DNA of 64,000 bases from Candidatus Undivivens industriae (GTDB lineage Bacteria; Omnitrophota; Gorgyraeia; Gygaellales; Profunditerraquicolaceae), in NCBI GenBank assembly GCA_012514745.1, contig JAAYZR010000015.1, positions 7,479-71,478 of the forward strand. The letters are read 5' to 3'. Of the stretch, positions 978-63,885 are shown piece after piece. Position 1 is the first letter of the stretch; each line of letters starts with the position of its first letter. The position numbers were made by a program, and so were the translations under genes. The notes under the pieces are model-generated. The model saw nothing but the letters and a program-made list of their open reading frames with translations, had not been told where the DNA came from and did no database searches.

Positions 978-2239
978 AGCCGTTCCCCCAGCGCGGAGAA
1001 TTCCGCCTTGAACGCCCGCCCCCGCTCTTCATAATTGGTAAACATGTCGAAACTGGAGCACATGGGAGACAACAGCACATAATCGCCCGCAGAAGCTTCC
1101 CGGAAGGCCTTTTGCACGGCGTCCGGCATCCCGGAGGCGTATTCCACAGGCACGCACCCGCCCAGGCAATCCCTTATCTTGTCTTTCGCTTCGCCTATCA
1201 GCAACAGCTTTTTCACCTTTCCCTTCGCGGCTTTGGCTATCAAAGAGTAATCGCATCCCTTATGCCTGCCGCCGGCGATCAGGAACACCCGCCCATTTAT
1301 GTTGTTCAGGGCCCACAGCGCAGATTCGGCGGTGGTCGCTTTGGAATCATTGATAAACTTTACCCCGCGCTTCTCCCCCACGAATTCGAAACGATGCTCT
1401 ATGCCGCGGAAATCTTGAAAGACCTTAACGCAGAGATCCGGGGTTATCCCGAGCAATGAAACTGCGGTCTTTACCGCGCTCTGATTCGGATTCAATCCTT
1501 CTTCCTCGCGGAAATAAACGGCCCTGGATCGCGCCTCTTTTTCCAATCCGCGCAAATACCGGTCCGACGGATTGAGCAAAAGAAAGTCTCCGTCTCCCTG
1601 GTTCAAATAAATACGTTTCTTCGCCTCGAGGTATTCCCTCATCCCCGGGTACCTGTCGAGATGATTCCTGTTTAAGTTCAATATCACAGCTATCCATGGC
1701 CTGAAATCGCGTATCGTCTCCAATTGGAAAGAACTAACCTCAAGACAGACAAAATCTTCGGCGGCCATTTTTTCCACCTCTCCGCAGAAAGGAGCTCCGA
1801 TGTTGCCGCAGACGAAAGCTTTCTTCCCGGAAGCCTTAATGACTTCCCCGATAAGAGTGGTAACAGTGGTCTTGCCGCTGGAGCCGGTGACCGCGATCAC
1901 CCTGGCCGGACAAAGCATATACGCGGCTTCTATTTCCCCTATCACCGGTATGCCGGCCTGCGCGGCGAAACCGAAAACCGGGCTTTGCGGGCCCACCCCC
2001 GGAGACACCACCACCATTTTGCTCCCGTCAAGAAATTCACGCGTGTGCCGCCCCAATTCGACCTCGATATCAGGAGAACAGAGTCCGCCCGCCGCCGTCC
2101 TGGTGAGCATACTGTCGCAGGCGTCGGTCACTCCTACGCGCGCGCCTATCCTGTATAGGAGATTGGCGCAGGCGACGCCTGAACGCGCCAGTCCCGCTAC
2201 CACGATTTTCTTCCCCTTGAAAAACTCCTGGTTTTTCAT
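974..2239 (-). CDS. murD: UDP-N-acetylmuramoylalanine--D-glutamate ligase
   Basis: 421 aa with an N-terminal Rossmann motif (KKIVVAGLARSG) and a Mur ligase ATP-binding motif (GSSGKTTVT). It lies between mraY and ftsW. Confidence 0.9.
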   Translation of the reverse strand: MKNQEFFKGKKIVVAGLARSGVACANLLYRIGARVGVTDACDSMLTRTAAGGLCSPDIEVELGRHTREFLDGSKMVVVSPGVGPQSPVFGFAAQAGIPVIGEIEAAYMLCPARVIAVTGSSGKTTVTTLIGEVIKASGKKAFVCGNIGAPFCGEVEKMAAEDFVCLEVSSFQLETIRDFRPWIAVILNLNRNHLDRYPGMREYLEAKKRIYLNQGDGDFLLLNPSDRYLRGLEKEARSRAVYFREEEGLNPNQSAVKTAVSLLGITPDLCVKVFQDFRGIEHRFEFVGEKRGVKFINDSKATTAESALWALNNINGRVFLIAGGRHKGCDYSLIAKAAKGKVKKLLLIGEAKDKIRDCLGGCVPVEYASGMPDAVQKAFREASAGDYVLLSPMCSSFDMFTNYEERGRAFKAEFSALGERL

Positions 2240-2286
2240 CTCCCGTCTTTCATCCTTGTGTTCTTAATGCTTGAGGACCGAAATCA

Positions 2287-2354
2287 GACCATCTCGCCGA
2301 CTTTTCAGCGGCGGATTCTGTGCGCTGTTTAAAGAACTTATTTAACAGCGCACT
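2287..2354 (+). repeat. Family-2 partial copy (right-end module plus terminal hairpin) in the murD–mraY intergenic region
   Basis: GACCATCTCGCC…GCGGCGG…GTGCGCTGTTTAAAGAACTTATTTAACAGCGCACT has an 11-bp perfect stem. It aligns with the right ~70 bp of copy A. Confidence 0.8.
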
Positions 2355-3444
2355 ACCTCAACTTCAGCGTTACCAGCGTCAGCAGCGCCAGAAGTCCGGC
2401 CACTATCCAGAAACGCACGATCACCTTGCTCTCCTGCCAGCCGAGAAACTGAAAATGGTGGTGCAGCGGGGCTATCTTGAATATGCGTTTGCCGGTCAAT
2501 TTGAAAGAAGCCACCTGCAGTATCACCGAAAGCGCTTCCAGGACGAACACGCCACCGATGACGACCAACAACAGCTCTTTCTTTATCAACAGCGCGACCG
2601 TTCCCAGCGCTCCGCCCAGAGCCAGAGATCCCACGTCGCCCATGAATACGGACGCGGGATAACAATTGTACCATAAAAAACCCAGCCCGGCGCCGAGTAT
2701 GGCGGAACAAAAGACCGACAGCTCCCCGGCGCCTCTTATGTAGGGAATGAAAAGATAACTGCTGAAACGTATATTGCCCGCGACGTAACTCAATATCCCC
2801 AGCGCCAGGGCGGCCATGACCACGTTCCCGGCGGCAAGTCCATCCAGCCCGTCGGTAAGATTAACCGCGTTGGATGACCCGGCGATGACCAGCGCGGCGA
2901 ATAATATATAAAACACACCCAGGTCTATTGTGACCTCCTTCATAAAGGGGATGTCCAGGGCGGTCCCGTACTGGCCGTCTAAAAAAATAACTGCCCCCGC
3001 TATCAACCCCAACACCAGCTGGCTCGCGAGTTTCTGAGCCGCGCTCAGGCCCTTGGAACGCTTTCTGACCTGCTTCAGATAATCGTCCGCGAAACCGGTA
3101 AGCCCGAGCCAGAGAGTGACCGTCAGAGCGATGATAATGTTCTTGTTAAGCGCTTCCGACCAGAGCAGCGTGGAAATAAAGACAGCCGCCAGTATAAATA
3201 TCCCGCCCATAGTGGGCGTATCCTGCTTGTTTATCTGCAGTTTGTAAAGTTCGCCGCTCTCTTTATTATTGCGGATGTTCTCCCCTATCTTTTGCCGTCT
3301 GAGCATGTTTATTATCCGCGGGCCGAGAATCAAACTGAGCAGGAACGCGGTCAAAGCCGCCATCGCCGCCCTGAAGGTGATGTAACGGAATACGTTGAAA
3401 AGAGCTATTTCTCCATGCAGGGGATAAAAAAGGTAGTATAACAT
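2353..3444 (-). CDS. mraY: Phospho-N-acetylmuramoyl-pentapeptide transferase
   Basis: MLYYLFYPLHGEIALFNVFRYITFRAAMA… is the canonical MraY N-terminus and the protein is polytopic. The track ORF begins at a TTG (3480) inside a REP copy. The likely true start is ATG 3444, preceded by GGAGG. Confidence 0.9.
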   Translation of the reverse strand: MLYYLFYPLHGEIALFNVFRYITFRAAMAALTAFLLSLILGPRIINMLRRQKIGENIRNNKESGELYKLQINKQDTPTMGGIFILAAVFISTLLWSEALNKNIIIALTVTLWLGLTGFADDYLKQVRKRSKGLSAAQKLASQLVLGLIAGAVIFLDGQYGTALDIPFMKEVTIDLGVFYILFAALVIAGSSNAVNLTDGLDGLAAGNVVMAALALGILSYVAGNIRFSSYLFIPYIRGAGELSVFCSAILGAGLGFLWYNCYPASVFMGDVGSLALGGALGTVALLIKKELLLVVIGGVFVLEALSVILQVASFKLTGKRIFKIAPLHHHFQFLGWQESKVIVRFWIVAGLLALLTLVTLKLR

Positions 3445-3465
3445 ATGCCTCCGTGTATTCTTCTT

Positions 3466-3536
3466 ATTCCGGGGACACAATACTTAATTCACGCCCGGCT
3501 GTGTTTATGATAATTAAGTATTGTGTCCCCGGAATT
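3466..3536. repeat. REPIN: inverted pair of 25-bp REP (AATTCCGGGGACACAATACTTAATT) with a 22-bp spacer, in the murF–mraY junction
   Basis: Forward copy at 3466..3489, inverted copy at 3512..3536. It contains the murF stop codon. Confidence 0.9.
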
Positions 3537-4950
3537 CAAACACTTTCTCCATCCGCATCCCGCGCGAACCTTTGACCAACACGAGGTCTCTGCGGGTAAC
3601 CTTAAGCGTATCGCGCAGAATACCGGCTGCTTGCGCGGAATCAGCGCAGCAGAATACCTTGTCCGCCGCGAACCCGGCATCCAGCGCGGCCCCGGCGGCG
3701 GCGCGGGCGAGCCCGCCGACAGCCACGAGGACATCGCATACCCCGGCGGCCCGCGTTCCGGCCAGGCGGTGAAACTCGCCGGAGTCCGGCCCCAATTCCA
3801 GCATATCCCCCATCACCAGCACTTTCCTGCCTACGGCGGTTATCGCCCCCAGAGCCTCGACGGCACGCTCAAACGAAAGCGGATTGGAATTATATGTATC
3901 GTCTATGAACACCGTCACATCGCTCTTGAACAGGCTCATCCTGCCGGACGGAAAATCAAAACCGCCTAATTTAGCGCATATCCGATCGTAATCTATACCG
4001 AGTATCCTGCCGACCGCGGCCGCGGCCAGGGCGTTATAAACGTTATGCGCCCCCACGGTCTTCAACCGGCATGGGATTTTCCTCCCGCGCCCGAGCAGAA
4101 ACTCCACTCCGCGCCGCGTGGTTTTTATCCCGGAAGCGATAAAATCGGCTCCCGGAGACATCCCGTAACCGAATGCCCGGCGCCTCTTGACCAGCGGAAA
4201 CAGCATTTTATCGTCGGCATTAAGTATCGCTGCCCCCGGGCGGCGCAGGAATTTCAACAGAGACGCCTTTTCCTTCAGAACCCCGTTCAAACTGCCGAAA
4301 TGTTCCAGGTGAGAAGGCCCTATATTGGTAATAACGGCCATTGTCGGCCTGCAGACCGCGGCAAGATAAGCGATCTCGCCCGGGTGGTTGCTACCCAGCT
4401 CAAAGACAGCCGCCTGGTGCGAGGCCTTCAACTCCAGCAACGCCAGCGGCATTCCTATATGATTATTCCTGGTGCCCCGGTTTTTCAACACCCTGTAACC
4501 GGCGGAAAGCGCGCAGGCGATCATATCCTTGGTTGTGGTCTTGCCGTTAGAACCGGTCACGGCGACCACCGGTATATCGAAACGCATTCTGTGGAAATGC
4601 GCGATAGCGGCAAGCGCCCTGACCGTGTCTTTGACCACAACCACGTCCGGCCCTGACGGTATCCCTGAAAGGCCGCGCCTTGCCGTAACCAGACAGGCAG
4701 CGCCTTTGCGCGCCGCCTCCGCCAGAAAATCATGCCCGTCGAAATGCTCCCCTTTAACCGCGACAAAAACCTGACCCGGCACTACAGAACGGGAATCTAT
4801 AGAGACACCGCGCATACTCCTCTCAACGCTGCCGGGACGTACCAGTCCCCTACTGGGACGTGCCAGCCCCCTACTGGGACGTGCCAGTCCCGTACAGGGA
4901 CGTGCCAGTCCCCCGCCGGTAGCCTTCAGGATCTCTGAGAGCGTAAACAT
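3514..4950 (-). CDS. murF: UDP-N-acetylmuramoyl-tripeptide--D-alanyl-D-alanine ligase
   Basis: 478 aa with Mur ligase motifs (GSNGKTTTK). The last 7 codons and the stop lie inside a REP copy. The N-terminus contains 4×21-bp tandem repeats (4834..4917). Confidence 0.9.
   Translation of the reverse strand: MFTLSEILKATGGGLARPCTGLARPSRGLARPSRGLVRPGSVERSMRGVSIDSRSVVPGQVFVAVKGEHFDGHDFLAEAARKGAACLVTARRGLSGIPSGPDVVVVKDTVRALAAIAHFHRMRFDIPVVAVTGSNGKTTTKDMIACALSAGYRVLKNRGTRNNHIGMPLALLELKASHQAAVFELGSNHPGEIAYLAAVCRPTMAVITNIGPSHLEHFGSLNGVLKEKASLLKFLRRPGAAILNADDKMLFPLVKRRRAFGYGMSPGADFIASGIKTTRRGVEFLLGRGRKIPCRLKTVGAHNVYNALAAAAVGRILGIDYDRICAKLGGFDFPSGRMSLFKSDVTVFIDDTYNSNPLSFERAVEALGAITAVGRKVLVMGDMLELGPDSGEFHRLAGTRAAGVCDVLVAVGGLARAAAGAALDAGFAADKVFCCADSAQAAGILRDTLKVTRRDLVLVKGSRGMRMEKVFEFRGHNT
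4834..4917. repeat. Intragenic 4 × 21-bp tandem repeat in the murF 5′ coding region
   Basis: GGGACGTRCCAGYCCCCTACT ×4. It encodes the N-terminal (T)GLARPSR heptapeptide repeats of MurF. Confidence 0.85.
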
Positions 4951-8097: not shown

Positions 8098-8316
8098 AAC
8101 TATATAATAAAGATTATACCGGCGCCGGGTTCTGCGCCGCGCCGGTTTACCGGGGAAGGGCCGTTTCTTCTCCTCCAGCCGGTAATCGTCTGATTATCGG
8201 AATATCCGCCCGCCGGGCCTCCCAGGGCCGCGCGGCGAGATATCTGTCCCGGATGTAAACGCGGGATCTTATACAATAATTGCTCCGGATTGCACTGCCT
8301 GCCGCAAAGCGGAAAG

Positions 8317-8685
8317 TCAATGCTGGATCGTGTGCGCTTCCGCCTGTCTCTTTATGCTGAATATCCTGGAAGCCAGCGTGAAAACACCGCCCTCTTCCCG
8401 GCCGGCCGGCGTTCCGCTCGCAACGGAGCCCACTTTCACCACCCGGCAGGTATCCGGCATCTGGAACTGATCGTCCCTGGAGACCTTATTCCCTATCCGT
8501 ATCAGGGAAGCGCTCTTCTCTATATTGTAACGCAGAACGTTGTTCTTATCGAGAAGTTCCTGGAAGGCTGATTGTTTCCTCTCCCCCTCGTAAGCCAGAC
8601 GAAAGATCTCCGCCTGTTGATAAACGTAGAGAACGGAAAAGACCGTACCTAACAATATGACGACTATTAATCGCGATATTCTCAT
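8317..8685 (-). CDS. ftsL: Cell division protein FtsL-like (bitopic)
   Basis: 122 aa with a single N-terminal TM helix followed by a coiled-coil-like region. It sits between rsmH and ftsI. Confidence 0.65.
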   Translation of the reverse strand: MRISRLIVVILLGTVFSVLYVYQQAEIFRLAYEGERKQSAFQELLDKNNVLRYNIEKSASLIRIGNKVSRDDQFQMPDTCRVVKVGSVASGTPAGREEGGVFTLASRIFSIKRQAEAHTIQH

Positions 8686-8686
8686 T

Positions 8687-9610: not shown

Positions 9611-9611
9611 C

Positions 9612-10049: not shown

Positions 10050-10061
10050 AGACCATCCTTT

Positions 10062-10095
10062 CCACTTTAAGCCACTTTGTTCCACCAGTATCCAC
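10062..10095 (-). promoter_or_regulatory. Putative MraZ operator: 4 direct GTGG repeats at exact 10-bp phasing
   Basis: CCAC (plus strand) lies at 10062, 10072, 10082 and 10092, between the -10 element and the mraZ start codon. Confidence 0.55.
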
Positions 10096-10096
10096 A

Positions 10097-10124
10097 AGTA
10101 TAACAAATTGCCTTTTAATGTCAA
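10097..10124 (-). promoter_or_regulatory. Sigma-70-type promoter of the mraZ/dcw operon (-35 TTGACA, 16-bp spacer, -10 TATACT)
   Basis: Read on the minus strand: TTGACA (10119..10124) and TATACT (10097..10102), both near consensus, in an AT-rich intergenic stretch. Confidence 0.55.
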
Positions 10125-13952: not shown

Positions 13953-14046
13953 ATTCCCCCCAGTCTAATACATTGTTACAAAAGTTTTCTTAGTGTTTGA
14001 TAATCGAAAGCAGAAAGTCGACCGCAAACGAGAACTTCCATCTAAG

Positions 14047-14160
14047 CGGAGCCCCTCGGGCTAAACAGGCCGGGGATTTCCGGGCGAGGGGATTAAATCT
14101 CGATTTTCTACTCTCCATTACTCCGTGCGCTGTTTAAAGAAATTATTTAACAGCGCACTA
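14047..14160 (+). repeat. Composite repeat: GGAGCCCCTCGGGCTAAA + CCGGGGATTTCCGGGCGAGGGGATTAAAT module + family-2 terminal hairpin
   Basis: The hairpin at 14125..14159 is identical in its stem to the 2325..2359 copy. The left modules recur at 49401..49429 and 49689..49720 (inverted). Confidence 0.8.
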
Positions 14161-15045
14161 CGGCCTGGGATGGAACATCTTGTGCACAGATTTCAGCCGG
14201 TCTTTATTGATATGCGTGTATATCTGCGTCGTGGAGATATTCGAGTGCCCCAGCATCTCCTGAACCGAACGCAGGTCCGCCCCGCGCTCAAGAAGGTGCG
14301 TGGCGAAGGAATGCCTCAACAGGTGCGGTTTGATCTCTTTCTTGATGCCCGCCTTCAAGGCGTAGCTTTTGATCATCTTCCAGACCGACTGCCTGGAGAG
14401 GCGCCGCCCCAATCTGCTGACAAACATATAATCGCTCTGTTTCTTCCCAAGCATCTTCCGGCGGCTCTTCTCGAGATAAAACCTGACGCTCTCGACCGCC
14501 TTACCGCCGAGAGGCACAACCCTTTCCTTGTTGCCCTTGCCGATACAACGCAGAAACCCGACATCCATGTTCACCGACCCGGTCTTGAGATCGACCGCCT
14601 CGGAAACGCGCATGCCTGTGGCGTAAAGCGTCTCCAGTATTGCCCTGTCTCGTATGCCGCGCGCCCTGCGCAGGTCCGGCTGCGCCAGCAGAGCCTCCAC
14701 TTCCTCCACGGAAAGAGTATCCGGTATCTTCTTCCAGAGTTTCGGGGTATCTACCAACCCCGAAGGGTCATCCTTAAGCACCCTCTCCCGCACCAGAAAA
14801 CGGTAGAACATCCGTATCGCCGCCAGCCGTCTCGCGATGGAATTGGAAGATATGCCGCGCGCCTTCTGGGCAGACATAAACTCCACGATATCGCTGCGCG
14901 TAACCCCGGATAACGCGCCGGCGGAACGCTCGGATAAAAACGCCGCATATTTCTTAAGATCTCCCCGGTAGGAAACGAGCGTATTGAAAGACAGCCCGCG
15001 TTCCACGGAAAGATAATTCAGAAAGGTTTCCACCAGCTCTTTCAT
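14158..15045 (-). CDS. Tyrosine site-specific recombinase, XerC/XerD family
   Basis: 295 aa with R…HxxR…Y catalytic residues (HSFATHLLERGADLRSVQEMLGHSNISTTQIYTH). The stop codon lies inside a family-2 repeat hairpin. Confidence 0.85.
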   Translation of the reverse strand: MKELVETFLNYLSVERGLSFNTLVSYRGDLKKYAAFLSERSAGALSGVTRSDIVEFMSAQKARGISSNSIARRLAAIRMFYRFLVRERVLKDDPSGLVDTPKLWKKIPDTLSVEEVEALLAQPDLRRARGIRDRAILETLYATGMRVSEAVDLKTGSVNMDVGFLRCIGKGNKERVVPLGGKAVESVRFYLEKSRRKMLGKKQSDYMFVSRLGRRLSRQSVWKMIKSYALKAGIKKEIKPHLLRHSFATHLLERGADLRSVQEMLGHSNISTTQIYTHINKDRLKSVHKMFHPRP

Positions 15046-20187: not shown

Positions 20188-21193
20188 AATTCCGGGGACA
20201 CAATACTTAATTCAAGAAAACGACAAGAAATCGTGTTAGATTTTACCATTTTCTTGCGTCTATTATAAGAGAATAGAATTATAGCATAAGTTTCTAATTC
20301 CGGGGACACAATACTTAATTCCCCTTCTCAAATTATACGGCTCCGCGGGATACCGTTTGTTCTCGGAAGGATTTTCTTGAGATAGCGGCCAAACCTCATC
20401 TGCTCCATAAATGGCGCGCTTTTTGTATAAACCAACAAGAAGGAGGCTTTCAATGGCAAGGATAGCGAGATTAGTCGTGCCCGGAATCCCCCACCACATT
20501 GTGCAGAGAGGCAACAGACGCCAAGATGTTTTCTTTAACGACGATGACAGAAGGGCCTATCTTAATTATCTAAAAGCATACGCTATTCCTTCTGGGATAG
20601 AATTCCTGTCATATTGTTTAATGGATAATCACGTGCATATTATTGGTATCCCGAGTAACAAGGATAGTTTTGCCGACGGTTTCGGAGAAGCACATCGCAG
20701 GTACACAAGAATGATCAATTTTAGAAAAGGATGGAGAGGATATTTGTGGGAAGGCAGATTCAAATCGTACCCCTTAGGGGGCGCTTATTTATATGCCGCG
20801 CTTCGTTATATAGAAATGAATCCTGTAAGAGCGGAAATGGTGAAGAACGCCTGGGACTATCCATGGTCAAGCGCAAAAGCACATGTCTTGAACCACACTG
20901 ACATTTTACTAACAAATAATTGTATCGCTTCGGAAGTGGAGGACTGGAGATCTTTTCTTTCCGAAGATGACAAACAAGATCACGCCGACTTATTAGAAAC
21001 GCATTTGATGAGCGGACGGCCGTTGGGAGATAATAAATTTATCGAGAAGGTAGAAAGATTAACCGGCAAAATACTGTATAAGCAGAAACCGGGACCGAAG
21101 AAGGCTGAGGATTAATTATACGGGGATACGATACTTAATTATCGCATCTCCGGCATGAGCTGCTTAATAATTAAGTATTGTGTCCCCGGAATT
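20188..21193 (+). mobile_element. RAYT/REP locus: REP-associated tyrosine transposase gene flanked by REP copies (2 direct upstream, one REPIN downstream)
   Basis: REP at 20188..20212 and 20296..20320. RAYT CDS. Degenerate REP 21116..21140 plus inverted REP 21169..21193. Confidence 0.8.
20453..21115 (+). CDS. REP-associated tyrosine transposase (RAYT, TnpA_REP; IS200/IS605-like Y1 HUH transposase)
   Basis: MARIARLVVPGIPHHIVQRGNRRQDVF…, HUH motif in …LMDNHVHIIG…, catalytic Tyr region …YLYAALRYIEMNPVRA…. Start set at ATG 20453 (AGGAGG 7 nt upstream). The track start 20411 is an upstream in-frame Met. Confidence 0.85.
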   Translation: MARIARLVVPGIPHHIVQRGNRRQDVFFNDDDRRAYLNYLKAYAIPSGIEFLSYCLMDNHVHIIGIPSNKDSFADGFGEAHRRYTRMINFRKGWRGYLWEGRFKSYPLGGAYLYAALRYIEMNPVRAEMVKNAWDYPWSSAKAHVLNHTDILLTNNCIASEVEDWRSFLSEDDKQDHADLLETHLMSGRPLGDNKFIEKVERLTGKILYKQKPGPKKAED

Positions 21194-21196
21194 ACG

Positions 21197-30300: not shown

Positions 30301-30422
30301 AGTGGGATTTTATACCGCATACACGTTGATCCCGGCCGCATCACCGTCTCAAAATACACGGCCGCAACAATTTGTTTCAGTATAACACACCGCGTTCAAA
30401 AAGCAATAGAAAAATCTTTTGC

Positions 30423-30475
30423 TTCCGGGGACACAATACTTAATTATAATAATTAAGTATTGTGTCCCCGGAATT
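30423..30475. repeat. REPIN (5-bp spacer) at the dnaB 3′ end
   Basis: Forward copy 30423..30445, inverted copy 30451..30475. The dnaB stop TAA is at 30474..30476. Confidence 0.9.
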
Positions 30476-40655: not shown

Positions 40656-41673
40656 TTTTGACCGGTTCTCCGTTCTTCTCCGCCTGCCCGGACAGTTTTT
40701 CCAGTTTCGCTCTCACTTCTTCCTGTTCGGGGTCGAGCCGCAGAGACTCCCGCCATTCCTGCGCGGCTTTATCTTTATCTCCAGTCTTAAGATAGAAATC
40801 ACCAAGGTGGTCAAGTATCACCGGATCGTTCAACAGTGAAGCAGCTTTTCTCAATTCCCTGCCCGCCTCTTTTATCATTCCCTTCTTGAAATAAAGCCAG
40901 CCCAGGCTGTCGACATAAGCGCCGTTGTCCGGAGCCAGGGAAACGGCCTTTTTTATCATCGCCTCCGCTTCCCTGATGTGGCGGCCTTCCTCAAGGTACA
41001 TATACCCGAGATAATTAAGGGCCTGGTGGCAATCCCCGTTTAAAGCTATGGTCTTGACCAGTTCGGCCTCGGCGCCTTTCTTGTCTCCCAGACGGTAACG
41101 TATATCCCCGAGATAAAAATGCGCCTCCCAGGAAGAAGGCGACAGATTTACTATCCTGCGGAACACCTGCTCGGCCTGCTCCAGCTTACCGCGGTAAAGA
41201 TACAGCCGCCCCAGGCTGACGGATATCCTGGCGTCGTCAGGTTTGGTCTCCGCCGCCGCACGCAAGGCGCTTTCGTATTCCTGTATGGCTTTATCGGGCT
41301 CTTCCAGCAGATAATAGACCAGCGACAGCAAAGCGTGGGGTTCCGCCATCTCCGGGCGCAACTTTGCCGCCGACTGCAGTTCCACGACGGCGCCGGGATA
41401 ATCCTCCTCGCCCATGTAACAAACGGCGAGTTTCATGCGGATGTAAACGTTTTGCGGGTCGGCCTTGAGCGCCTTTTTGAATTCCCGTATGGAATTTTTT
41501 TGCTCGCCGCGGCGGTTGTAAATCAATCCGGTTATATAATGGCTCAACGCAGAGGCTTTCGCGCTTTCCGCCGCCCGGCAGGCGCCGGCGCAGATGAGGA
41601 CAAAGAACAACAATGCGGGTATTGAACCCCGGGAGATAAAACTCTTTATGCTGAAAGGTTTCGGAAGGGCCAT
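40645..41673 (-). CDS. TPR-repeat lipoprotein
   Basis: Signal peptide with a lipobox-like AGAC, then multiple TPR repeats. Confidence 0.65.
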   Translation of the reverse strand: MALPKPFSIKSFISRGSIPALLFFVLICAGACRAAESAKASALSHYITGLIYNRRGEQKNSIREFKKALKADPQNVYIRMKLAVCYMGEEDYPGAVVELQSAAKLRPEMAEPHALLSLVYYLLEEPDKAIQEYESALRAAAETKPDDARISVSLGRLYLYRGKLEQAEQVFRRIVNLSPSSWEAHFYLGDIRYRLGDKKGAEAELVKTIALNGDCHQALNYLGYMYLEEGRHIREAEAMIKKAVSLAPDNGAYVDSLGWLYFKKGMIKEAGRELRKAASLLNDPVILDHLGDFYLKTGDKDKAAQEWRESLRLDPEQEEVRAKLEKLSGQAEKNGEPVKNGK

Positions 41674-41703
41674 TTTTATCCCGGAACTCGCGCGTGACGG
41701 CGT

Positions 41704-41770
41704 AATTCCGGGGACACAATACTTAATTGTGTGTGCTTTTAGGAATAATTAAGTATTGTGTCCCCGGATT
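41704..41770. repeat. REPIN between the TPR lipoprotein gene and the small basic ORF
   Basis: Forward copy 41704..41728, inverted copy 41747..41770 (1-nt deletion). The spacer GTGTGTGCTTTTAGGAAT is homologous to the spacer of the 45427 REPIN in reverse. Confidence 0.9.
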
Positions 41771-41777
41771 ACGTTTA

Positions 41778-45338: not shown

Positions 45339-45426
45339 TTTTCATTCCTCCTGAATGGAACCTTGGAACTAAAACCAGAGGCCCCTGTTTTTTCCGGCGA
45401 AGCTCCGGCTCCCCCGGTACATGGTC

Positions 45427-45492
45427 ATTCCGGGGACACAATACTTAATTATTTCTAAAACCACACACAATTAAGTATTGTGTCCCCGGAAT
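45427..45492. repeat. REPIN between the ferredoxin and rubrerythrin-like genes
   Basis: Forward copy 45427..45450, inverted copy 45469..45492. The rubrerythrin-like stop abuts it. Confidence 0.9.
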
Positions 45493-45493
45493 C

Positions 45494-45973
45494 TTAGCGC
45501 TCCATAAGATTCTCAAACATCTCTTCGTGTTCGATTTCCTCGGCGAGTATATGCACAACCAACTGATAGGTTACGTGGTCCTTACCGAACGTCTTCTTAG
45601 CGATCTTGTTGTAAACATCTATCGCGGAAGCCTCGGCTTCGGTAACGATGCGGATTATACGGTTGATATCCGCTCCGTTCTTGGGAGGCATTATGTAAGG
45701 CGCGTTGGCGTTTTTTTCAAGTTCCATCGGATTGGCTATCGGGACACCGCCCAGTTTCGTGATCAGGTCGGCCAGTTCTTCAGCGTGTTCCTTCTCATCC
45801 GCGGCGATTTTCTTCAGCAATTCCTTCATATCCTCGTAGGCCTTGCCGCAGACTATCTGGGCCATATACCAATAAAGATAATGCGCCAGCCATTCGTCGG
45901 CGTAAGCTTTCGTCAGGTCTTTGACGATATCCTTAAGTGGAATTTCCGTTATCGCCCTTGCCTGCTTTCCCAT
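45494..45973 (-). CDS. Ferritin-like diiron protein (rubrerythrin/bacterioferritin superfamily, no rubredoxin domain)
   Basis: Paired E…ExxH motifs (EKEHAEEL … EEIEHEEMF). Confidence 0.6.
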   Translation of the reverse strand: MGKQARAITEIPLKDIVKDLTKAYADEWLAHYLYWYMAQIVCGKAYEDMKELLKKIAADEKEHAEELADLITKLGGVPIANPMELEKNANAPYIMPPKNGADINRIIRIVTEAEASAIDVYNKIAKKTFGKDHVTYQLVVHILAEEIEHEEMFENLMER

Positions 45974-51137: not shown

Positions 51138-52148
51138 TTACTCCTTATCCTTCTTGCGTTTAGCGCCCTTCGAGTTCTTCTGCTGCCATTCCCACGCCGA
51201 GGATATTATCTGTTCCAGGCCGAGCTTGGGCCTCCAGCCAAAGAGTTCTTCGGCTTTAGCGTAGGAGGCCACCAGTTCCGCGGCGTCCCCGGGCCTGCGC
51301 GCGGCTATTTTGACCGGGAGGGGACTGCCGGTGATTTTTTCGACGGACGAGACCATTTCTTTGACGCTGTATCCCCTGCCGCTGCCCAAGTTTAAGGCGG
51401 CGTTTTTCACGCTCTTGTCCAGCGCCTCCAAGGCCAGTAAATGCGCCCGGGCCAAATCCATCACGTGTATGTAATCCCTGATACAGGTACCGTCGCGCGT
51501 GGGATAGTCATCCCCGAAGATGTTCAATGCCGGGATATCACCCGCCGCCGCCTTCAGCGCGTTGGGAAGTAGATGCGTCGCCTCTTCAAGCGGCTGCCCT
51601 ATCCTGCCGCTCGGGTGCGCTCCGGAAACGTTGAAGTAACGCAAAGCCAGATAATCCATCTTTCCGGCGGCGGCGCAGTCACGCAATATCTGCTCCACCA
51701 TCATCTTGGAAGTTCCATAAGGGTTCTCCGGCCGCAGGGGGGCTTCCTCGTTCACCGGCACCAGCTCCGGCTGTCCGTAAACCGCGGCCGAGGAAGAAAA
51801 AATGAATTTGCGCGCGCCGTGCTTCAGGCAATGTTGAAGCAGGTTGACAGATCCCCAGACGTTGTTGTCGTAGTACTTCAACGGCTCGCTCACCGACTCC
51901 GGGACCACTATCGAGGCCGCGAAATGCAAGACGGCATCGAAGCGGAAGCGCGAAAAAAGATTCTCCAGATCCTGCGCGGACCGCAGATCGCCCCGCACGA
52001 ATTCCACGCCCTCCGGGACGCGCTCCCTCCTGCCGGTAGATAGATCGTCGAACACCACCGCTTCTCTTCCCTGCTCAAGCAAGAGGCTCAACATATGCGA
52101 ACCGATATACCCGGCACCGCCGGTGATCAGAATGAGGTCATTTTTCAA
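51138..52148 (-). CDS. galE: UDP-glucose 4-epimerase (NAD-dependent epimerase/dehydratase)
   Basis: ITGGAGYIGSH…YxxxK. The likely start is TTG 52148 (GGAG RBS). The track ORF's first 13 aa derive from a degenerate REP. Confidence 0.8.
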   Translation of the reverse strand: MKNDLILITGGAGYIGSHMLSLLLEQGREAVVFDDLSTGRRERVPEGVEFVRGDLRSAQDLENLFSRFRFDAVLHFAASIVVPESVSEPLKYYDNNVWGSVNLLQHCLKHGARKFIFSSSAAVYGQPELVPVNEEAPLRPENPYGTSKMMVEQILRDCAAAGKMDYLALRYFNVSGAHPSGRIGQPLEEATHLLPNALKAAAGDIPALNIFGDDYPTRDGTCIRDYIHVMDLARAHLLALEALDKSVKNAALNLGSGRGYSVKEMVSSVEKITGSPLPVKIAARRPGDAAELVASYAKAEELFGWRPKLGLEQIISSAWEWQQKNSKGAKRKKDKE

Positions 52149-52160
52149 CGTTAACTCCGT

Positions 52161-52185
52161 AACTCCGGGGACACGATACTTAATC
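52161..52185. repeat. Degenerate single REP (AACTCCGGGGACACGATACTTAATC) at the galE 5′ end
   Basis: 3 mismatches to the consensus. Confidence 0.7.
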
Positions 52186-52334
52186 AAGCCGCAGAATGCG
52201 GCGCAGGTTACCCCGTAGAGTGCCGGGAAAATGTCGAAGAGATTTCCCCGGTATCTTACGACATGGGGTTAATTTGGGAAGCTCCCCAAGGGGAGCTTCA
52301 TTACTCGGTAACGCTTACGGTCACGAAGCCCGTT

Positions 52335-59303: not shown

Positions 59304-59369
59304 AATTCCGGGGACACAATACTTAATTATTGTTGTCGCCTTACAATTAAGTATTGTGTCCCCGGAATT
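59304..59369. repeat. REPIN in the divergent era–mutS intergenic region
   Basis: Forward copy 59304..59328, inverted copy 59345..59369. Confidence 0.9.
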
Positions 59370-59380
59370 ACAGGTATAAA

Positions 59381-61978
59381 ATGTGGACTATGGAAAATTT
59401 GACCCCTATGCTTAAGCAATACCGGGAAATCAAGGCAAAATATCCCGATTGCATTCTTTTTTTTCGCCTTGGCGATTTCTATGAGATGTTCATGGAAGAC
59501 GCCAAAACCGCCAGCCCTATACTGGAGGTAGTCCTCACTTCCCGAGACGCCGGCAAGGCGGGCAGGATGCCGATGTGCGGGGTCCCTTATCATGCCGGGG
59601 ACAATTACGTGGCAAAATTGGTTAAAGCAGGTTTCAAAGTCGCTATATGCGAGCAGGTTGAGGACCCGGCACTCGCCAAGGGACTGGTGAAGCGCGAGGT
59701 GATCCGGGTAATTACAGCAGGCACTTTCATAGATGAAACCAGCAACGACCAGCGTTTCACCTGTTGTATATATCCTGGCACAGACGGTGTAGGCCTGGCT
59801 TTTTCTGAAGCGTCTTCAGGGGTGATCCAACTGGCGCGTTTTACCGGTAATGAAGCCGCGGTGACGGTAATGGCGAAACTACCTCTCTTGGAATGCCTTT
59901 TCCCTCAGCAGGATGAACAGCAGGTAAAAGAATTATTAGAGCACCCGCTATTGAAAAATAAAGGGCTCTCCCTCAGCCCTTATGAAAACTGGAATTTTAA
60001 CCCGGAGATCGCGGAAAAGAATTTAACCGAGCATTTCGGGACAAACAGCCTGAAAGGTTTCGGCATAGAGGAGATCTCCGCGGCGGTATCCGCGGCAGGA
60101 GCGCTTCTGGAGTATTTGAAAAGCGTGCACCGTTCTTCTTTGAAGCACATCGACCGCCTTGCGCTGTATTCCGAAACCGGCAGTGTATTCATCTCTCCCG
60201 CCGCCTGTTACGGTCTGGAACTGGAAGAGCTTTTCCAGACGCTCGACCGAACCGTCACTCCGCTCGGCAGGCGCATGTTTAAAGAGTGGCTCTACCGGCC
60301 ATTGAGCGATCTGGAAGAGATCAAAAAACGCCAGCAGGCGGTGAGCATCCTGAAGAACGATCCTATGCTGAGAGATAACCTGGGCAAGACGCTCAAGAAC
60401 ACTCCCGATATAGAAAAAAACCTTTCCCGGCTTAGCTGCGGTTCAGGAGGAGCTAAAGACCTACTGGCCCTGCGCAACGCGCTTAACCGCGTGCCGACAC
60501 TGCAATCGTTGCTCTCCGAAGCAGGCAAGGACACTGAATTACTCCGGCTCAAAGACGCCGCGCGCATAAGAGAACTGCTTGAACAAACCATCAACCCGGA
60601 GATGCCGCTTTCGCTCTCCGAGGGAAAAGTCATACGCCCGGGATACCACAGAGAGCTGGACGAATTGCGCGATCTGCAGGAAAACGGCAGACAATGGCTG
60701 CAGTCCTACCAGGCGCAGCAAGCCAAAGAAACCGGGATAAATTCCCTGAAGATAGGATTCAACAATGTGTTCGGTTATTATATCGAAGTCACGCGCGCTA
60801 ATCTGAAGAATACCCCGCCCCATTTCACGCGAAAACAGACCCTTGCCAACGCCGAGCGTTTTGTCACCGGAGAATTAAAGGAATTCGAGGAAAAGATCCT
60901 GACTGCTCAAGGAAAGATCGCGGCGATAGAACGCGAAATAGTCAACGGGCTCTGCTCCCAGGTATTGAAAGACGCGACTGCCCTGCATGAAACGGCCTCC
61001 GGCATCGCGTCTCTCGACGCCTTGTATTCGATGTCCGCTATCGCATCCCTTCCGGGATATATCATCCCGGAGGTGAACTCCGGCGAAGAGATTCACATTA
61101 AAGACGGACGCCACCCGGTAGTGGAAAAACTCACCGGCAACGCCTTTATTCCCAACGACACACTGCTCGACCGCAACGAGAACCAGCTTATAATACTCAC
61201 CGGTCCAAATATGGCCGGTAAATCCACTTATATAAGGCAGACCGCCTTGCTGGTTATTATGGCGCAGATGGGAGGAACGGTGCCGGCGGCAGAGGCGCGC
61301 ATCGGCATGGTAGATAAGATATTCACCCGCATCGGAGCGCACGATGAGATCAGCAAAGGACAGAGCACATTCATGGTGGAGATGACCGAGGCCGCCGGGA
61401 TATTGAACAATCTTTCCGAGCGCAGTCTGGTAGTTCTCGACGAAATCGGACGCGGCACAAGCACCTACGACGGGCTCAGCCTCGCCTGGGCAGTGGCGGA
61501 ATTCCTGCAGCAACGAAAAGTCAGGACGCTTTTCGCCACGCATTTCCACGAACTCACCGCGCTGGCCGAGGAATACCCTGGTGTGAAAAATTATAACGTC
61601 TCGGTAAAAGAATGGGACGACCGCATCATATTCCTGCACAAGATAATACCCGGCGGCAGCGACCAAAGCTACGGCATCTACGTGGCAAAGCTCGCCGGCA
61701 TCCCGAAGGAAGCAGTTTCCCGCGCCGGGGCGATACTGGCGAAGCTCGAGCTGCACGGCAGCCTGCAGGAAACCATCCGCCACGGCGGCAAGTCAACCGA
61801 ACGACAAATGGCGATATTCGAAAAGGAAAACAAAGAAGCACGGCGTTACGAGGAAATAGGCAGGGCGCTTGAAGAAACCGACATAGACTCCCTAACGCCC
61901 CTGGAAGCGCTGAACAAACTTCAACAGCTAAAAAGGATAGCGGAGAAAAATGGCAAAAGTTCACCAGTTACCTCCTGA
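59381..61978 (+). CDS. mutS: DNA mismatch repair protein MutS
   Basis: MENLTPMLKQYREIK…FFRLGDFYEMF (mismatch-binding Phe) and Walker A GPNMAGKST. The start is 59381 or 59390. The track start 59354 lies inside a REP. Confidence 0.9.
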   Translation: MWTMENLTPMLKQYREIKAKYPDCILFFRLGDFYEMFMEDAKTASPILEVVLTSRDAGKAGRMPMCGVPYHAGDNYVAKLVKAGFKVAICEQVEDPALAKGLVKREVIRVITAGTFIDETSNDQRFTCCIYPGTDGVGLAFSEASSGVIQLARFTGNEAAVTVMAKLPLLECLFPQQDEQQVKELLEHPLLKNKGLSLSPYENWNFNPEIAEKNLTEHFGTNSLKGFGIEEISAAVSAAGALLEYLKSVHRSSLKHIDRLALYSETGSVFISPAACYGLELEELFQTLDRTVTPLGRRMFKEWLYRPLSDLEEIKKRQQAVSILKNDPMLRDNLGKTLKNTPDIEKNLSRLSCGSGGAKDLLALRNALNRVPTLQSLLSEAGKDTELLRLKDAARIRELLEQTINPEMPLSLSEGKVIRPGYHRELDELRDLQENGRQWLQSYQAQQAKETGINSLKIGFNNVFGYYIEVTRANLKNTPPHFTRKQTLANAERFVTGELKEFEEKILTAQGKIAAIEREIVNGLCSQVLKDATALHETASGIASLDALYSMSAIASLPGYIIPEVNSGEEIHIKDGRHPVVEKLTGNAFIPNDTLLDRNENQLIILTGPNMAGKSTYIRQTALLVIMAQMGGTVPAAEARIGMVDKIFTRIGAHDEISKGQSTFMVEMTEAAGILNNLSERSLVVLDEIGRGTSTYDGLSLAWAVAEFLQQRKVRTLFATHFHELTALAEEYPGVKNYNVSVKEWDDRIIFLHKIIPGGSDQSYGIYVAKLAGIPKEAVSRAGAILAKLELHGSLQETIRHGGKSTERQMAIFEKENKEARRYEEIGRALEETDIDSLTPLEALNKLQQLKRIAEKNGKSSPVTS

Positions 61979-63779
61979 AGTAATCAGTAAAATAGCGGCC
62001 GGGGAAGTCATTGAACGCCCGGCTTCCGTGGTCAAGGAATTAATGGAGAATTCAGTGGATGCCGGCGCCGAGCGCGTCGAAGTCGAGATCAAATCCGCCG
62101 GAAAGGAACTGATCTCCGTGCGCGACGACGGATGCGGCATAGGGCCGGAAGACATGGACAACGTCTTCCAGCGGCACTCCACCAGCAAGATAGCCAAGGC
62201 CGAGGATATCTATATGGTCGGGTCTCTGGGATTCAGGGGAGAGGCCCTCTACAGCATCGCCTCGGTCTCGGACGTGCTCCTGCAAAGCCGGACAAGAGAC
62301 AACGACGCCGGATGGGAGATACACCTGCGCGGAAACAAACGCCTCAAATCGGCGCCTGCCGGGGTCTCCTACGGAACGACACTCGAAATAAGAGAGCTTT
62401 TTTTCAACACCCCGGCACGGCGCAAGTTCTTGAAGAGCGATACCACGGAAACTAACGAAATAATCGACGTTTTTATGCCTTACGCGCTGCTCTACCCCGG
62501 CAAGGAATTCAAGCTCGTATCCAACGGGAAGGTACTGCTGGAGCTCGAGAAACACGACAGCCACAGGCAAAGGATGGCGGCGGCCCTGAACCTCGAGTCT
62601 AAGAACCTCATCGAGACGGAAAAAATCTTCCCGCAGGAACGCTTGAACATACACCTTGTGCTGGGCAATATAAATCTTCAACGGAAACGGCGCGATATGC
62701 AGTTTATTTTTGTCAACGGCAGGCCGGTATCTTCGAAAGATATCTCCTTCCACGTCAACCAGGCTTATCGCCTGCTTATGCCGGACGGAGTTAACCCTAT
62801 TTTTTCAGTCCATCTGCGCCTGCCGCAGGAGAATATCGACGTTAACGTGCACCCCGCCAAACGCGAGATCAGGATCAAGGACGAACGCAACATCTTTCTG
62901 CTGCTAAGAAACTGCTGTGAGCATGCACTGATGAACATCTCGCCTGCCAGACAATTCGGACAGCAGATATCCAGTTTCCATTTCAACGGCGAACCGCCGC
63001 ATTCCCCCGGAGTAAACACTCCTCATCCGAGAGCGTCAGGAGAAAAAGAGGACAGGACCGCGGAAAGCGGGAAACCCTACCGGGTGCGGAGCGAATTCCC
63101 GTTCCCTTCCGGGGGACGTCCGCCGGCGATGGAACGCCAGAACGTGTTTTCGCAGGAGGAAAGCGCCATGCTCCTGCGCAAAGAAGAGATCGCTGCGGAG
63201 AAAAACGAAGACCTCAAGTCCACGCTCAAAAGCGCGCGCTTTATCGGTTCGCTGAAAAAGAAATATCTGTTATTCGAATCTACGGCCTCTCTCTTGCTGA
63301 TAGACCAGCACGCCGCGCAAGAAAGGATCACCTATGAAAAGCTTTCCCGTCAGATGGCAACCGGAAAAGTAGAAATACAGAACCTGCTGGCTCCGCTGAC
63401 GATACGACTCAACAAAAAAGAGATACTGGCCTGGGAGATATTGAAAGAAAAACTGGAGAAAATCGGTTTCTCAACCACGCTTTTCGACAAGGAGACCGTG
63501 GCGGTCCATTCGCATCCGGCGCTGCTCGCGCAACCCGAAGCGGCTGTGCGCGACATACTCTGCGATGAAGAATCAAAGATTTACGATACCGATATGCTGG
63601 CAAGAAGGGCATGCAGACAATCGCTTATGACGGGATACGATATGAAGGCCCAAGAAGCGGAGTATCTGGCAGAGGAACTGCTCAAATGCGCCGACCCGTT
63701 CACCTGCCCGCACGGCAGGCCTACGGTAGTGGAGATAACGATGCTTTCGCTGGATAAGAATTTCTTCCGAAGGCTGTAG
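61950..63779 (+). CDS. mutL: DNA mismatch repair protein MutL
   Basis: …ISKIAAGEVIERPASVVKELMENSVDAGA… is a GHKL ATPase. The C-terminal dimerisation domain ends FTCPHGRPT…. The stop lies inside a family-2 hairpin. Confidence 0.9.
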   Translation: MAKVHQLPPEVISKIAAGEVIERPASVVKELMENSVDAGAERVEVEIKSAGKELISVRDDGCGIGPEDMDNVFQRHSTSKIAKAEDIYMVGSLGFRGEALYSIASVSDVLLQSRTRDNDAGWEIHLRGNKRLKSAPAGVSYGTTLEIRELFFNTPARRKFLKSDTTETNEIIDVFMPYALLYPGKEFKLVSNGKVLLELEKHDSHRQRMAAALNLESKNLIETEKIFPQERLNIHLVLGNINLQRKRRDMQFIFVNGRPVSSKDISFHVNQAYRLLMPDGVNPIFSVHLRLPQENIDVNVHPAKREIRIKDERNIFLLLRNCCEHALMNISPARQFGQQISSFHFNGEPPHSPGVNTPHPRASGEKEDRTAESGKPYRVRSEFPFPSGGRPPAMERQNVFSQEESAMLLRKEEIAAEKNEDLKSTLKSARFIGSLKKKYLLFESTASLLLIDQHAAQERITYEKLSRQMATGKVEIQNLLAPLTIRLNKKEILAWEILKEKLEKIGFSTTLFDKETVAVHSHPALLAQPEAAVRDILCDEESKIYDTDMLARRACRQSLMTGYDMKAQEAEYLAEELLKCADPFTCPHGRPTVVEITMLSLDKNFFRRL

Positions 63780-63885
63780 TGCGCTGTTAAATAAGCTCTT
63801 TAGACAGCGCATTCCCCTCCTTCATCATCCCCATCGAGGAAAAGGAAGATTAGTTGAACTCTGTTGGTTCCCGTAACCGTTGCCG
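63776..63885 (+). repeat. Family-2-related rearranged element (terminal hairpin + CTGTTGGTTCCCGTAACC module) at the mutL 3′ end
   Basis: Hairpin AGTGCGCTGTTAAATAAGCTCTTTAGACAGCGCAT. …CTCTGTTGGTTCCCGTAACCG matches the core of copies A and B. Confidence 0.7.

Follow-up and report, generated by a model that had tools for sequence, protein, structure and literature searches.

A transposon-end repeat at the 3' end of murF in an Omnitrophota genome

The 64,000-nucleotide (nt) stretch of DNA analysed here, called the window throughout, comes from Candidatus Undivivens industriae, a member of the uncultured phylum Omnitrophota (contig JAAYZR010000015.1, positions 7,479 to 71,478, forward strand), and positions below count from its first letter. 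Two families of short repeats in the window touch the 3' ends of several genes. The subject of this account is a copy of the first family, an inverted pair of units between murF and mraY. A model that had seen only the letters and a list of their open reading frames (ORFs), here called the sequence-only reading, named the first family a repetitive extragenic palindrome (REP) and proposed that such repeats had repeatedly rewritten the 3' ends of essential genes. The following features lie at the murF-mraY junction.

3514..4950, minus strand: murF, UDP-MurNAc-tripeptide:D-Ala-D-Ala ligase, 478 aa as an ORF, with Pfam Mur_ligase, Mur_ligase_M and Mur_ligase_C domains and orthologues in Omnitrophota
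3514..3534, minus strand: repeat-encoded MurF tail (FRGHNT codons 3517-3534, TAA 3514-3516)
3465..3536: inverted dimer, with arms 3465-3489 (plus) and 3512-3536 (minus) and a 22-nt spacer
3467..3534: mobile core of this dimer, as taken here, 68 nt, TTCCGGGG...CCCCGGAA
2353..3444, minus strand: mraY, real extent, with ATG at 3444 and GGAGG upstream; 363 aa against 362 aa in orthologues

A repeat-encoded tail on MurF

The murF gene ends ...GTG TTT GAA TTC CGG GGA CAC AAT ACT TAA, which encodes ...MEKVFEFRGHNT (...VFEFRGHNT). As the sequence-only reading had it, the last six codons and the stop are supplied by the repeat; all of them lie within the right arm of the 3465..3536 dimer. This arm matches the repeat unit at 25 of 25 positions and is perfectly paired with the left arm. 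The Mur_ligase_C domain ends at residue 463 of 478, and MurF orthologues have in common ...GSRGM[RH]ME[KR]VF[ED] followed by 0-25 unconserved residues. A MurF with 95% identity (P0001) also carries the FRGHNT tail. Its contig (L001) ends within the repeat and is an independent assembly and sample with an identical murF-repeat junction, and its MurF protein cluster has 44 members.

Three relatives with 65-69% MurF identity (L002, L003 and L005) have no family-1 element at the murF-mraY junction. Their MurF proteins end ...VFEET*, ...VFEETRGTKHEARG... and ...VFDEARGMKHEARRR*, respectively. The same C-terminus in repeat-free relatives would have made the likeness to the repeat a coincidence, but all three end differently. 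Because these proteins end otherwise after VFE, the FRGHNT tail of MurF is, by comparison with its orthologues, repeat-derived.

Excising 3467..3534 leaves GTG TTT GAA TAA GAAGAATACACGGAGGCATATG, with an in-frame TAA directly after VFE and 17 nt before the mraY ATG. The flank left after excision aligns with the ...ACGGAGGCATATG that precedes mraY in the relatives. The predicted junction before insertion reads ...GTGTTTGAATAAGAAGAATACACGG, and the predicted empty site is GTGTTTGAATAAGAAGAATACACGGAGG. On the simplest history, MurF would have been lengthened by six residues and not rewritten, by an insertion between its last sense codon and its old stop; the ancestor ending ...VFE-TAA is a reconstruction. 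From the outside inwards, one frame of the unit reads TTC CGG GGA CAC AAT ACT TAA, and from the inside outwards one frame reads AAT TAA. The ends of the repeat thus do hold ready-made stop codons, with TAA in one frame per strand.

Other repeats affect MurF in this and sister genomes. A different short repeat, GAGGNACGAAGCATGA, occurs at gene 3' ends in L003 (3861, 11361, 12701 and 14015) and L005 (6116 and 7339). It encodes the longer MurF tails of these two genomes (…RGTKHEARG…), so that the MurF tail has been made by repeats in more than one lineage, and it appears to be the source of the TGA stop of a ribF-like gene in L003. Variant family-1 units, TTCCGGGGACACAGTACTTAATT (L003 12760-12790) and AATTCCGGGGACACAGTATTTAC (L005 7395-7425), lie in the mraY-murD spacer, so the sister genomes do carry the family, but at other sites. 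Within the N-terminal part of the window's murF, a 21-nt tandem repeat (4829-4912) encodes about four copies of GLARPSR-like heptapeptides. The P0001 MurF has two fewer copies (464 versus 478 aa) and more distant orthologues have none; the repeat is a copy-number-variable insert in an essential enzyme.

Repeats and gene ends elsewhere in the window

The dimer at 3465..3536 reads TATTCCGGGGACACAATACTTAATT, then 22 nt, then AATTAAGTATTGTGTCCCCGGAATT, and is thus an inverted pair of one 25-nt unit, AATTCCGGGGACACAATACTTAATT. Sixteen units are found in the window at six or fewer mismatches (0 expected), arranged as six inverted dimers and four singles. With the 23-nt core TTCCGGGGACACAATACTTAATT, 15 matches at three or fewer mismatches compare with 0 in 100 shuffles. 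Besides those at murF and around a transposase gene described below, the copies are as follows.

30421..30475: tight dimer with a 5-nt spacer at the dnaB 3' end
41704..41771: dimer between hisG and a tetratricopeptide repeat (TPR) gene, in contact with no stop
45426..45493: dimer between convergent genes, abutting the stop of a ferritin/Dps-like gene
52161..52185, plus strand: single degenerate unit with three mismatches that gives the galE ORF a false start
59304..59369: dimer between the divergent genes era and mutS
63886-63910, minus strand: single unit 3' of mutL, with its outer end partially repeated in short tandem copies as far as 63925 (CCGGAAC CCGGAAC CCGG)

The dimers appear to be copied as units because those at 41705-41768 and 45429-45492 have their spacer in common, being 97% complementary across 64 nt with the spacer included. 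As RNA, the murF-mraY dimer folds into a perfect 24-bp stem of -46 kcal/mol (z = -6.3). The remaining dimers fold at -40 to -45 kcal/mol, and dimer stems are 24-27 bp long. Folding is limited to dimers, as the single 25-nt unit has no internal stem and no GTAG. A scan of 2000-15000 found no intrinsic terminator (a hairpin plus a T-run) at 3465-3536 or at the second-family hairpins 2320-2356 and 14125-14161. The tails that follow these three hairpins read AAUAAGAAG, AGAAUCC and GGAGUAA, and the missing T-tail rules out the hairpins at murF-mraY, mraY and xerD as intrinsic terminators. Rfam 15 searched across the whole window at gathering score returned two tRNAs and no other RNA family, and a full-text literature search for the repeat sequence found no paper.

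The insertion at dnaB can be read from a filled and an empty site. The dnaB stop (30474-30476) has 2 nt in common with the unit at 30451-30475, in agreement with the sequence-only reading that stop and repeat abut or overlap. In a repeat-free relative with 78% DnaB identity (L126), the gene ends ...GAA GAG ATA TAA and continues directly with AGATTTTTTATTTG, with the downstream flank AGATTTTT. In a relative with 98% DnaB identity (L125), the end reads ...GTA GAG TTC TAA, then TTCCGGGG...CCCCGGAA, then AGATTTTTCTATTGC, which places a 51-nt dimer between TAA and AGATTTTT. The junction was read directly, as a MAFFT alignment put the short empty-site sequence in the wrong place, and it is spanned by an independent contig. 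Because L126 has TAA at the same position relative to the downstream flank, the dnaB stop is, by this pair, ancestral, with the dimer lying exactly at or after it. The predicted empty junction, GAGTTYTAAAGATTTTTC, had no match in the metagenome scan. DnaB of the window ends ...ARVEF* and most orthologues end ...ARIE*; these tails differ by 0-2 residues among orthologues. At its other end, the dnaB ORF (31821-31910) is about 30 residues longer than most orthologues (478 versus about 445 aa), and the true start is probably the internal Met of ...MPTESSIEKLPPQNL.

The gene at 45494..45973, termed rubrerythrin-like by the sequence-only reading, matches Pfam Ferritin and Rubrerythrin and is Dps-like by NCBIfam. 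Its stop (45494-45496) abuts the unit at 45469-45493 with no overlap.

A second family is made up of hairpins of the form (G)TAG-TGCGCTGTTAAATAA-n-TCTTTAAACAGCGCAC, in which GTAG is followed by a palindrome of about 14 bp. These lie at the stops of four genes.

2320..2356, minus strand: GTAG hairpin whose TAG is the mraY stop (2353-2355)
14125..14161, minus strand: GTAG hairpin whose TAG is the xerD stop (14158-14160), found at the same place in L003
27859..27895, minus strand: degenerate hairpin with a CTAA head, whose TAA is the bamA stop (27892-27894)
63776..63812, plus strand: GTAG hairpin whose TAG is the mutL stop (63777-63779)

The head is GTAG in three of the four copies and CTAA in the bamA copy, and each of the four stops is formed by the three bases after the leading G or C, which agrees with the placement of these stops in or next to the hairpin by the sequence-only reading. 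The GTAG copies have uninterrupted stems of 10-11 bp (12-13 pairs in total) and fold at -18 to -20 kcal/mol; the bamA copy, at -13 kcal/mol, does no better than shuffles. Family 2 is a GTAG-headed REP, and TAG stops derived from such REPs have already been published. It has only four to five copies in the window, and tblastn found no second Y1 transposase gene there that could be its cognate REP-associated tyrosine transposase (RAYT). A contig from a related Omnitrophota genome (L102, JBAZDY01) carries a distant Y1 gene (1176-1631, 27% identical, with NHVHLL and YIHKNP motifs) about 350 nt from a family-2 GTAG hairpin (1981-2020); this gene is a candidate RAYT for family 2.

Several of the genes in contact with these repeats keep their usual protein ends. 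MraY ends ...TLVTLKLR* here and also in L002, L003 and L005, which are free of the hairpin. The mraY gene of L003 already ends AGG TAG TG (GGTAGTG), and the GTAG at this site is therefore older than the hairpin. In L003, which has the hairpin at the same position, XerD likewise ends ...HPRP*, and BamA matches the Omp85 profile through its last residue. Among the genes compared, the protein ends at mraY, xerD, dnaB and bamA are, as far as these alignments indicate, ancestral, and the repeats sit on or beside existing stops.

At the other ends of genes, family-1 units create false ORF starts. The ORFs 2353..3480, 41291..41719 and 59354..61978 all begin TTG TGT CCC CGG AAT within a unit, and such 'CPRN...' starts are artefacts. 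Among them are the listed mraY start at 3480, a TTG in the repeat, and the TTG at 59354 of the mutS ORF, which comes from the dimer 59304..59369. The 'MCPRN...' N-termini pointed out by the sequence-only reading are thus confirmed as artefacts for these three, but its fourth example, placed at 3521, is the ORF 3523..3969, which starts VSPEF. Its remark on galE also stands, since the ORF 51138..52187 begins (L)IKYRVPG within the degenerate unit 52161..52185.

Further repeats surround the galE region. Inverted repeats at 48976-49062 and 52373-52466 (about 57 nt and about 46 nt; 91% and 85% complementary) bracket 3.4 kb that includes a UDP-glucose dehydrogenase gene and galE. The intergenic regions on both sides of this segment are long and repeat-rich. 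Tandem repeats of 81-82 nt (49467-49689) lie 5' of the UDP-glucose dehydrogenase gene, and a related inverted copy is found 7.4 kb away (57070-57111).

The transposase gene and the spread of its repeat

Family-1 units bracket a transposase gene in inverted orientation, two plus-strand units on its 5' side and a degenerate plus-strand unit together with an exact minus-strand unit on its 3' side.

20188-20212 and 20296-20320, plus strand: two direct single copies of the unit 5' of the transposase gene
20453..21115, plus strand: Y1/HUH tyrosine transposase of the TIRYT type, with an HVH motif and an RYIEMNP tyrosine helix
21116..21193: dimer at the downstream end of the transposase unit, formed by the degenerate plus-strand unit 21116-21140 and the exact minus-strand unit 21169-21193
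21196-21270, minus strand: tRNA-Arg, just past the downstream end of the transposase unit

The listed ORF is 20411..21115, and the gene start is set at 20453 because homologues begin MARIAR...; GGAGG lies upstream. The stop codon of this gene is itself in contact with the degenerate unit 21116-21140. Its product matches Pfam Y1_Tnp (IS200-like) at E = 2.8e-10 (40.8 bits, cut-off 23) and the E. coli TnpA_REP structure 4ER8 by sequence at E = 1e-4, with HVH and RYIEMNPV aligned to HMH and YIYINPV. An AlphaFold model based on 32 homologues (pLDDT 86.5) has 4ER8 as its best fold match in the PDB (E = 6e-8), followed by the TnpA proteins of IS608 and ISDra2. A C-terminal extension of about 85 aa is conserved in the alignment and helical in the model. 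The family comprises 546 clusters at E <= 1e-30 among 1.84 billion representatives, and many of its members are on contigs of 1-2 kb.

Four loci with homologues of the transposase were picked without regard to the repeat. At L119 (68% identity), both the unit and its arrangement are identical to those of the window. L121 and L124 (63% and 58%) have the terminal inverted repeat (TIR) ACACGATAC, ...ACACGATACTTAATT, in the same layout. L123 (56%) has a different TIR, GGGGGACAGCTACCATAATT. The TIRs of L121, L123 and L124 rule out a TIR universally fixed in this transposase family. In L009, L090, L121 (2167-2191) and L124 (914-938), the stop of the transposase gene itself is the TAA in the inner end (AATTAAG) of the downstream TIR.

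TIRtrons, described by Di Nocera et al. (2013; PMC3733652), consist of a RAYT-like TIRYT gene, long TIRs sharing GGGGWSAS, and scattered single or dimer copies. The same elements are found in the window: a RAYT-related Y1/HUH gene, long inverted repeats in place of GTAG hairpins, and copies dispersed as singles, dimers and groups. The window TIR contains GGGGACAC, which fits the GGGGWSAS consensus, and in TIRtrons too some TIRs reach into the transposase gene at its 3' end. Family 1 is therefore the terminal inverted repeat of a TIRYT-type Y1 transposase gene. The REP label given to it by the sequence-only reading does not hold, as the unit is neither a palindrome nor headed by GTAG or GTGG; the GTAG REP of the window is family 2. 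The dimers, in which two inverted units with a short spacer form one long hairpin and are copied together, have the structure of REPINs. No target-site duplication was found at dnaB (L125 versus L126), in the murF reconstruction or around cross-phylum dimers, which sets them apart from classical, DDE-derived miniature inverted-repeat transposable elements (MITEs). By their architecture, the window dimers are MITE- or REPIN-like, apparently non-autonomous derivatives of transposon ends.

Comparison with the described systems also brings out differences. Omnitrophota were outside the surveys of PMC3733652 and PMC6006769, whose relevant passages hold no statement on base-for-base TIR identity across phyla. 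Most TIRYTs were placed in subclass 2.1 by Quentin et al. (2018; PMC6006769), whose described members have Bac_DnaA_C, HTH_23 or HTH_28-like domains, unlike the C-terminal extension here, which has no Pfam helix-turn-helix (HTH) match. The same study reports no repeats near the subclass 2.1 genes, whereas in the window they are obvious. REPIN/RAYT systems (Bertels and Rainey 2011, PMC3116915; PMC3337134) resemble the window in having two inverted short repeats with a short spacer that form a long hairpin, non-coding and in many copies, and a single-copy Y1 gene flanked by the same repeats, with dimers copied as units. They differ in that the window unit is neither a palindrome nor GTAG-headed and the transposase scores below the NCBIfam RAYT cut-off. 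REPINs are also described as lineage-specific and vertically inherited, while the window unit is identical across phyla.

The exact 21-mer CCGGGGACACAATACTTAATT occurs in at least 112 stretches (L007-L118) of species-representative genomes from a dozen or more phyla. The listed matches include complete Gammaproteobacteria chromosomes, three cultured Kordiimonas species, Planctomycetota, Clostridia, Desulfobacterota, Elusimicrobia, Desantisbacteria, Nitrospirae, Spirochaetota, Saccharibacteria and WOR-3. Omnitrophota, Alphaproteobacteria and Zetaproteobacteria are also among the phylum-level groups with the unit. Transposases adjoining exact units are only 37-63% identical to that of the window among the matches listed. 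REP-like repeats are as a rule confined to one lineage, and identity of this kind is very unusual among them. A dimer query against plasmid and phage collections gave no convincing match, only a 24-nt match at 92% on a Candidatus Thiodictyon plasmid and matches at chance level.

The borders of the unit are sharp in the cross-phylum copies, 131 of which were used for border statistics. AATT is preceded by T in 39% of them and by G in 32%, and further out the sequence is random. The outer TAA is found in only 29% of these units, which rules it out as a part of the unit. Conservation in unselected partner arms is lowest over the outer six positions (AATTCC). Immediately beyond 24 of 110 units (22%) are truncated direct copies of the outer end (AATTCCG..., sometimes as far as AATTCCGGGGACACAA), compared with 2 of 110 (2%) for a control stretch. 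Examples are found in the window (63908-63925) and in L121, L123, L024, L043, L052, L060, L089 and others, and may have arisen by nested insertion, or by cleavage and rejoining that recurred at this end.

ORF ends were surveyed at 147 units from the window and other genomes. Several ORFs stop at the outer T-AA, and five long ORFs end FRGHNT*, four of them outside the window (L020, L025, L045 and L058). Three of these four are genes verified by Pfam, encoding a DOPA-dioxygenase-family protein (L020), an FkbM methyltransferase (L025) and CstA (L045); the ORF of L058 has no Pfam match. We suggest, tentatively, that a TIR kept base-for-base over a dozen phyla could reflect either a rigid and ancient recognition site, imposed by protein-DNA contacts or a host factor, or ongoing spread of a tiny element between phyla.

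Adjacent to the transposase unit, a tandem array of about five 46-nt units (21268-21497) extends from the 5' end of the tRNA-Arg gene. Adjacent copies are 88-90% alike and the last is degenerate.

Origin of the insertions and competing explanations

It is probable, in our judgement, that a dimer of TIRtron TIRs mobilised by a TIRYT landed at the end of murF, where it extended the protein by six residues, and that other copies came to lie on or beside stops that already existed. The transposase or a relative would have copied TIR dimers around the genome by way of single-stranded hairpin intermediates, with no duplication of the target. The 68-nt element at murF would have inserted after the last sense codon and ahead of the native TAA, in an ancestor with ...GTG TTT GAA followed by TAA GAAGAATACACGGAGGCATATG. 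As the sequence shows, the frame now runs six codons into the arm as far as the TAA at the inner end of the unit (CTTAATT), which is in frame in one of three frames. Repeats landing one codon early would in this way extend a protein, and others would come to rest on or next to the existing stop.

Several features suggest how such an insertion would be tolerated. The tail lies past Mur_ligase_C, in a region that is unconserved and 0-25 residues long in orthologues. No U-tract follows the hairpin, and the ribosome-binding site and ATG of mraY are intact downstream of it. Because no T-tail follows the stem and the mraY ribosome-binding site is intact, the operon is presumably still read through.

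A number of observations weigh against this account. The transposase scores 51.5 bits against NCBIfam REP_Tyr_transpos (NF047646, the equivalog of E. coli TnpA_REP), below the cut-off of 80, and a Pfam search with its C-terminal 97 aa at E = 10 found no domain and no HTH. The gene at 20453..21115 is presumed to be the mobiliser of the repeat from its adjacency and from the precedent of its family. Characterised Y1 enzymes bind hairpins, whereas a single unit of this repeat does not fold by itself. Neither the metagenome scan for the predicted site nor a close relative yielded an empty murF-mraY allele. The nearest repeat-free relatives have at least two residues past VFE or VFD (ET in L002, more in L003 and L005), and a small replacement of residues may have occurred there. 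The boundary of the element is ambiguous by 2 nt, with AA/TT at both ends, and the MurF tail is a predicted one.

Enzymes of the IS200/IS605 type insert 3' of a short target. Were the target to be (T/G)AA for the TIR element and GTAG for family 2, and so to coincide with stop codons, the TAA or GTAG at the head of a repeat would belong to the host, and the repeats would be homing to the ends of genes. The position of the dnaB dimer exactly after TAA, that of the murF element between GAA and TAA, and the GGTAGTG at the mraY end of hairpin-free L003 are all as expected under homing. So are the preference for T or G ahead of AATT, with random sequence beyond it, and the weak conservation of the outer AATTCC in unselected partner arms. 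However, less than a third of units have the outer TAA, and many units are found beside gene starts or in the space between divergent genes. Survivors just outside coding sequence would also be expected from purifying selection alone, and GTAG is described as part of the REP itself in characterised RAYT systems (PMC3733652). Homing to stop codons is thus possible but doubtful.

The stems themselves might be what is kept. A perfect duplex of 24 bp could plausibly be cut by RNase III and could hold back 3' exonucleases. The stop of murF lies at the top of the 5' arm of such a stem inside the dcw operon, and a terminating ribosome must therefore melt the whole stem. The stem may also shield the mRNA upstream of it or draw in RNase III. 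In E. coli, a REP that lies less than 16 nt from a stop reduces translation of the gene before it, by stalling ribosomes and causing the mRNA to be cleaved (Liang, Rudd and Deutscher 2015, as related in PMC12306157). By analogy with those REPs, at 15 nt or less from a stop, the hairpin may lower MurF output or lead to cleavage of the mRNA. Both cases have a stable repeat hairpin at a stop inside an operon. They differ in that the murF stop is inside the stem and not upstream of it, and in that the stem is much longer (24 bp, perfect).

From this it could be argued that the hairpins have been exapted for roles in RNA, as 3' exonuclease barriers, RNase III sites or termination attenuators that set operon ratios such as murF to mraY, with stop overlap as part of their function. 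The stability of the stems (-40 to -46 kcal/mol) in the absence of a terminator T-tail in the scanned region fits this proposal, as do the xerD hairpin at the same position in a relative with 65% MurF identity, the retention of the murF and dnaB dimers in relatives with 95-98% identity, which come from the samples SRR8476420 and ERZ27257415, and the E. coli case of REPs no more than 15 nt from stops. Against it, the murF and dnaB insertions are absent from relatives with 65-79% identity and so are young, retention in near-identical genomes is expected without selection, and dimers also occur in promoter regions between divergent genes. We consider exaptation unlikely.

Still less likely is the original claim that insertions repeatedly replaced the C-termini and stops of murF, dnaB, the ferritin-like gene, mraY, xerD, bamA and mutL, which would make the repeats a general source of gene ends. 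All seven stops are in contact with a repeat, the MurF tail and stop are repeat-encoded where repeat-free relatives differ, and DnaB ends in ARVEF and not, as in most orthologues, in ARIE. Yet relatives have identical MraY and XerD tails, L003 already has the G-TAG at mraY without the hairpin, BamA is complete to the last profile position, the dnaB TAA is at the same position in the empty site of L126, and the ferritin-like gene is merely abutted. The reconstruction of murF, too, gives an extension, and repeated rewriting of the 3' ends of essential genes is not borne out by the genes compared.

Chance resemblance or mis-assembly across the repeat is scarcely credible: assemblies do often break at this repeat, as L001 does inside it, and many transposase homologues are on 1-2 kb contigs, but the right arm matches the unit at 25/25 and pairs perfectly with the left arm where 0 matches are expected by chance, an independent sample has the identical murF junction in a protein cluster of 44 members, and an independent contig spans the dnaB junction.

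The insertion of a TIR dimer by a TIRYT, which we prefer, can be set beside other small mobile repeats. Rickettsia palindromic elements (RPEs), inserted in frame, and MITEs by or overlapping genes are small palindromic mobile repeats that add residues without destroying the protein and can place the same peptide on unrelated proteins. RPEs insert internally, and classical MITEs have DDE-type parents and target duplications. The element here instead adds a short C-terminal tail with its own stop, and no target duplication is seen. RPEs and the bacterial MITEs NEMIS/Correia, ERIC and RUP are cited in PMC3733652, where GTAG-tagged REPs that supply TAG stop codons are also described (Di Nocera et al. 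2013). Family 2 is similar in that it lies downstream of genes and its TAG is the stop of mraY, xerD and mutL (TAA for bamA). It differs in that its TAG at mraY is demonstrably older than the hairpin, and in its few copies in the window.

The general phenomenon of repeats that overlap gene ends and provide stops has thus already been published, and the present finding confirms it. MurF is a clean case in which a repeat associated with a Y1 transposase lies within a codon of a stop and extends an essential enzyme without apparent harm. The dnaB genes of L125 and L126 form a filled and empty pair that shows insertion without target duplication. TIRYT elements have barely been studied, and the window offers a compact and complete example, with transposase, TIRs and six dimers, from an uncultured phylum.

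For annotation, FRGHNT is to be treated as a real but repeat-derived tail in MurF, and likewise in the CstA, FkbM methyltransferase and DOPA-dioxygenase-family protein of other phyla. The family also predictably yields false TTG or GTG starts ('CPRN...'), and both effects should be taken into account in gene calling and in the clustering of proteins. Of the loose ends, the identity of the 25-mer across phyla and the recurrent FRGHNT tail are the most interesting. If the TIR is indeed kept base-for-base on this scale, one fixed hexapeptide and its stop would have been appended to unrelated proteins across the bacterial domain, in contrast to the lineage-specific, vertically inherited picture of REPIN/RAYT systems.

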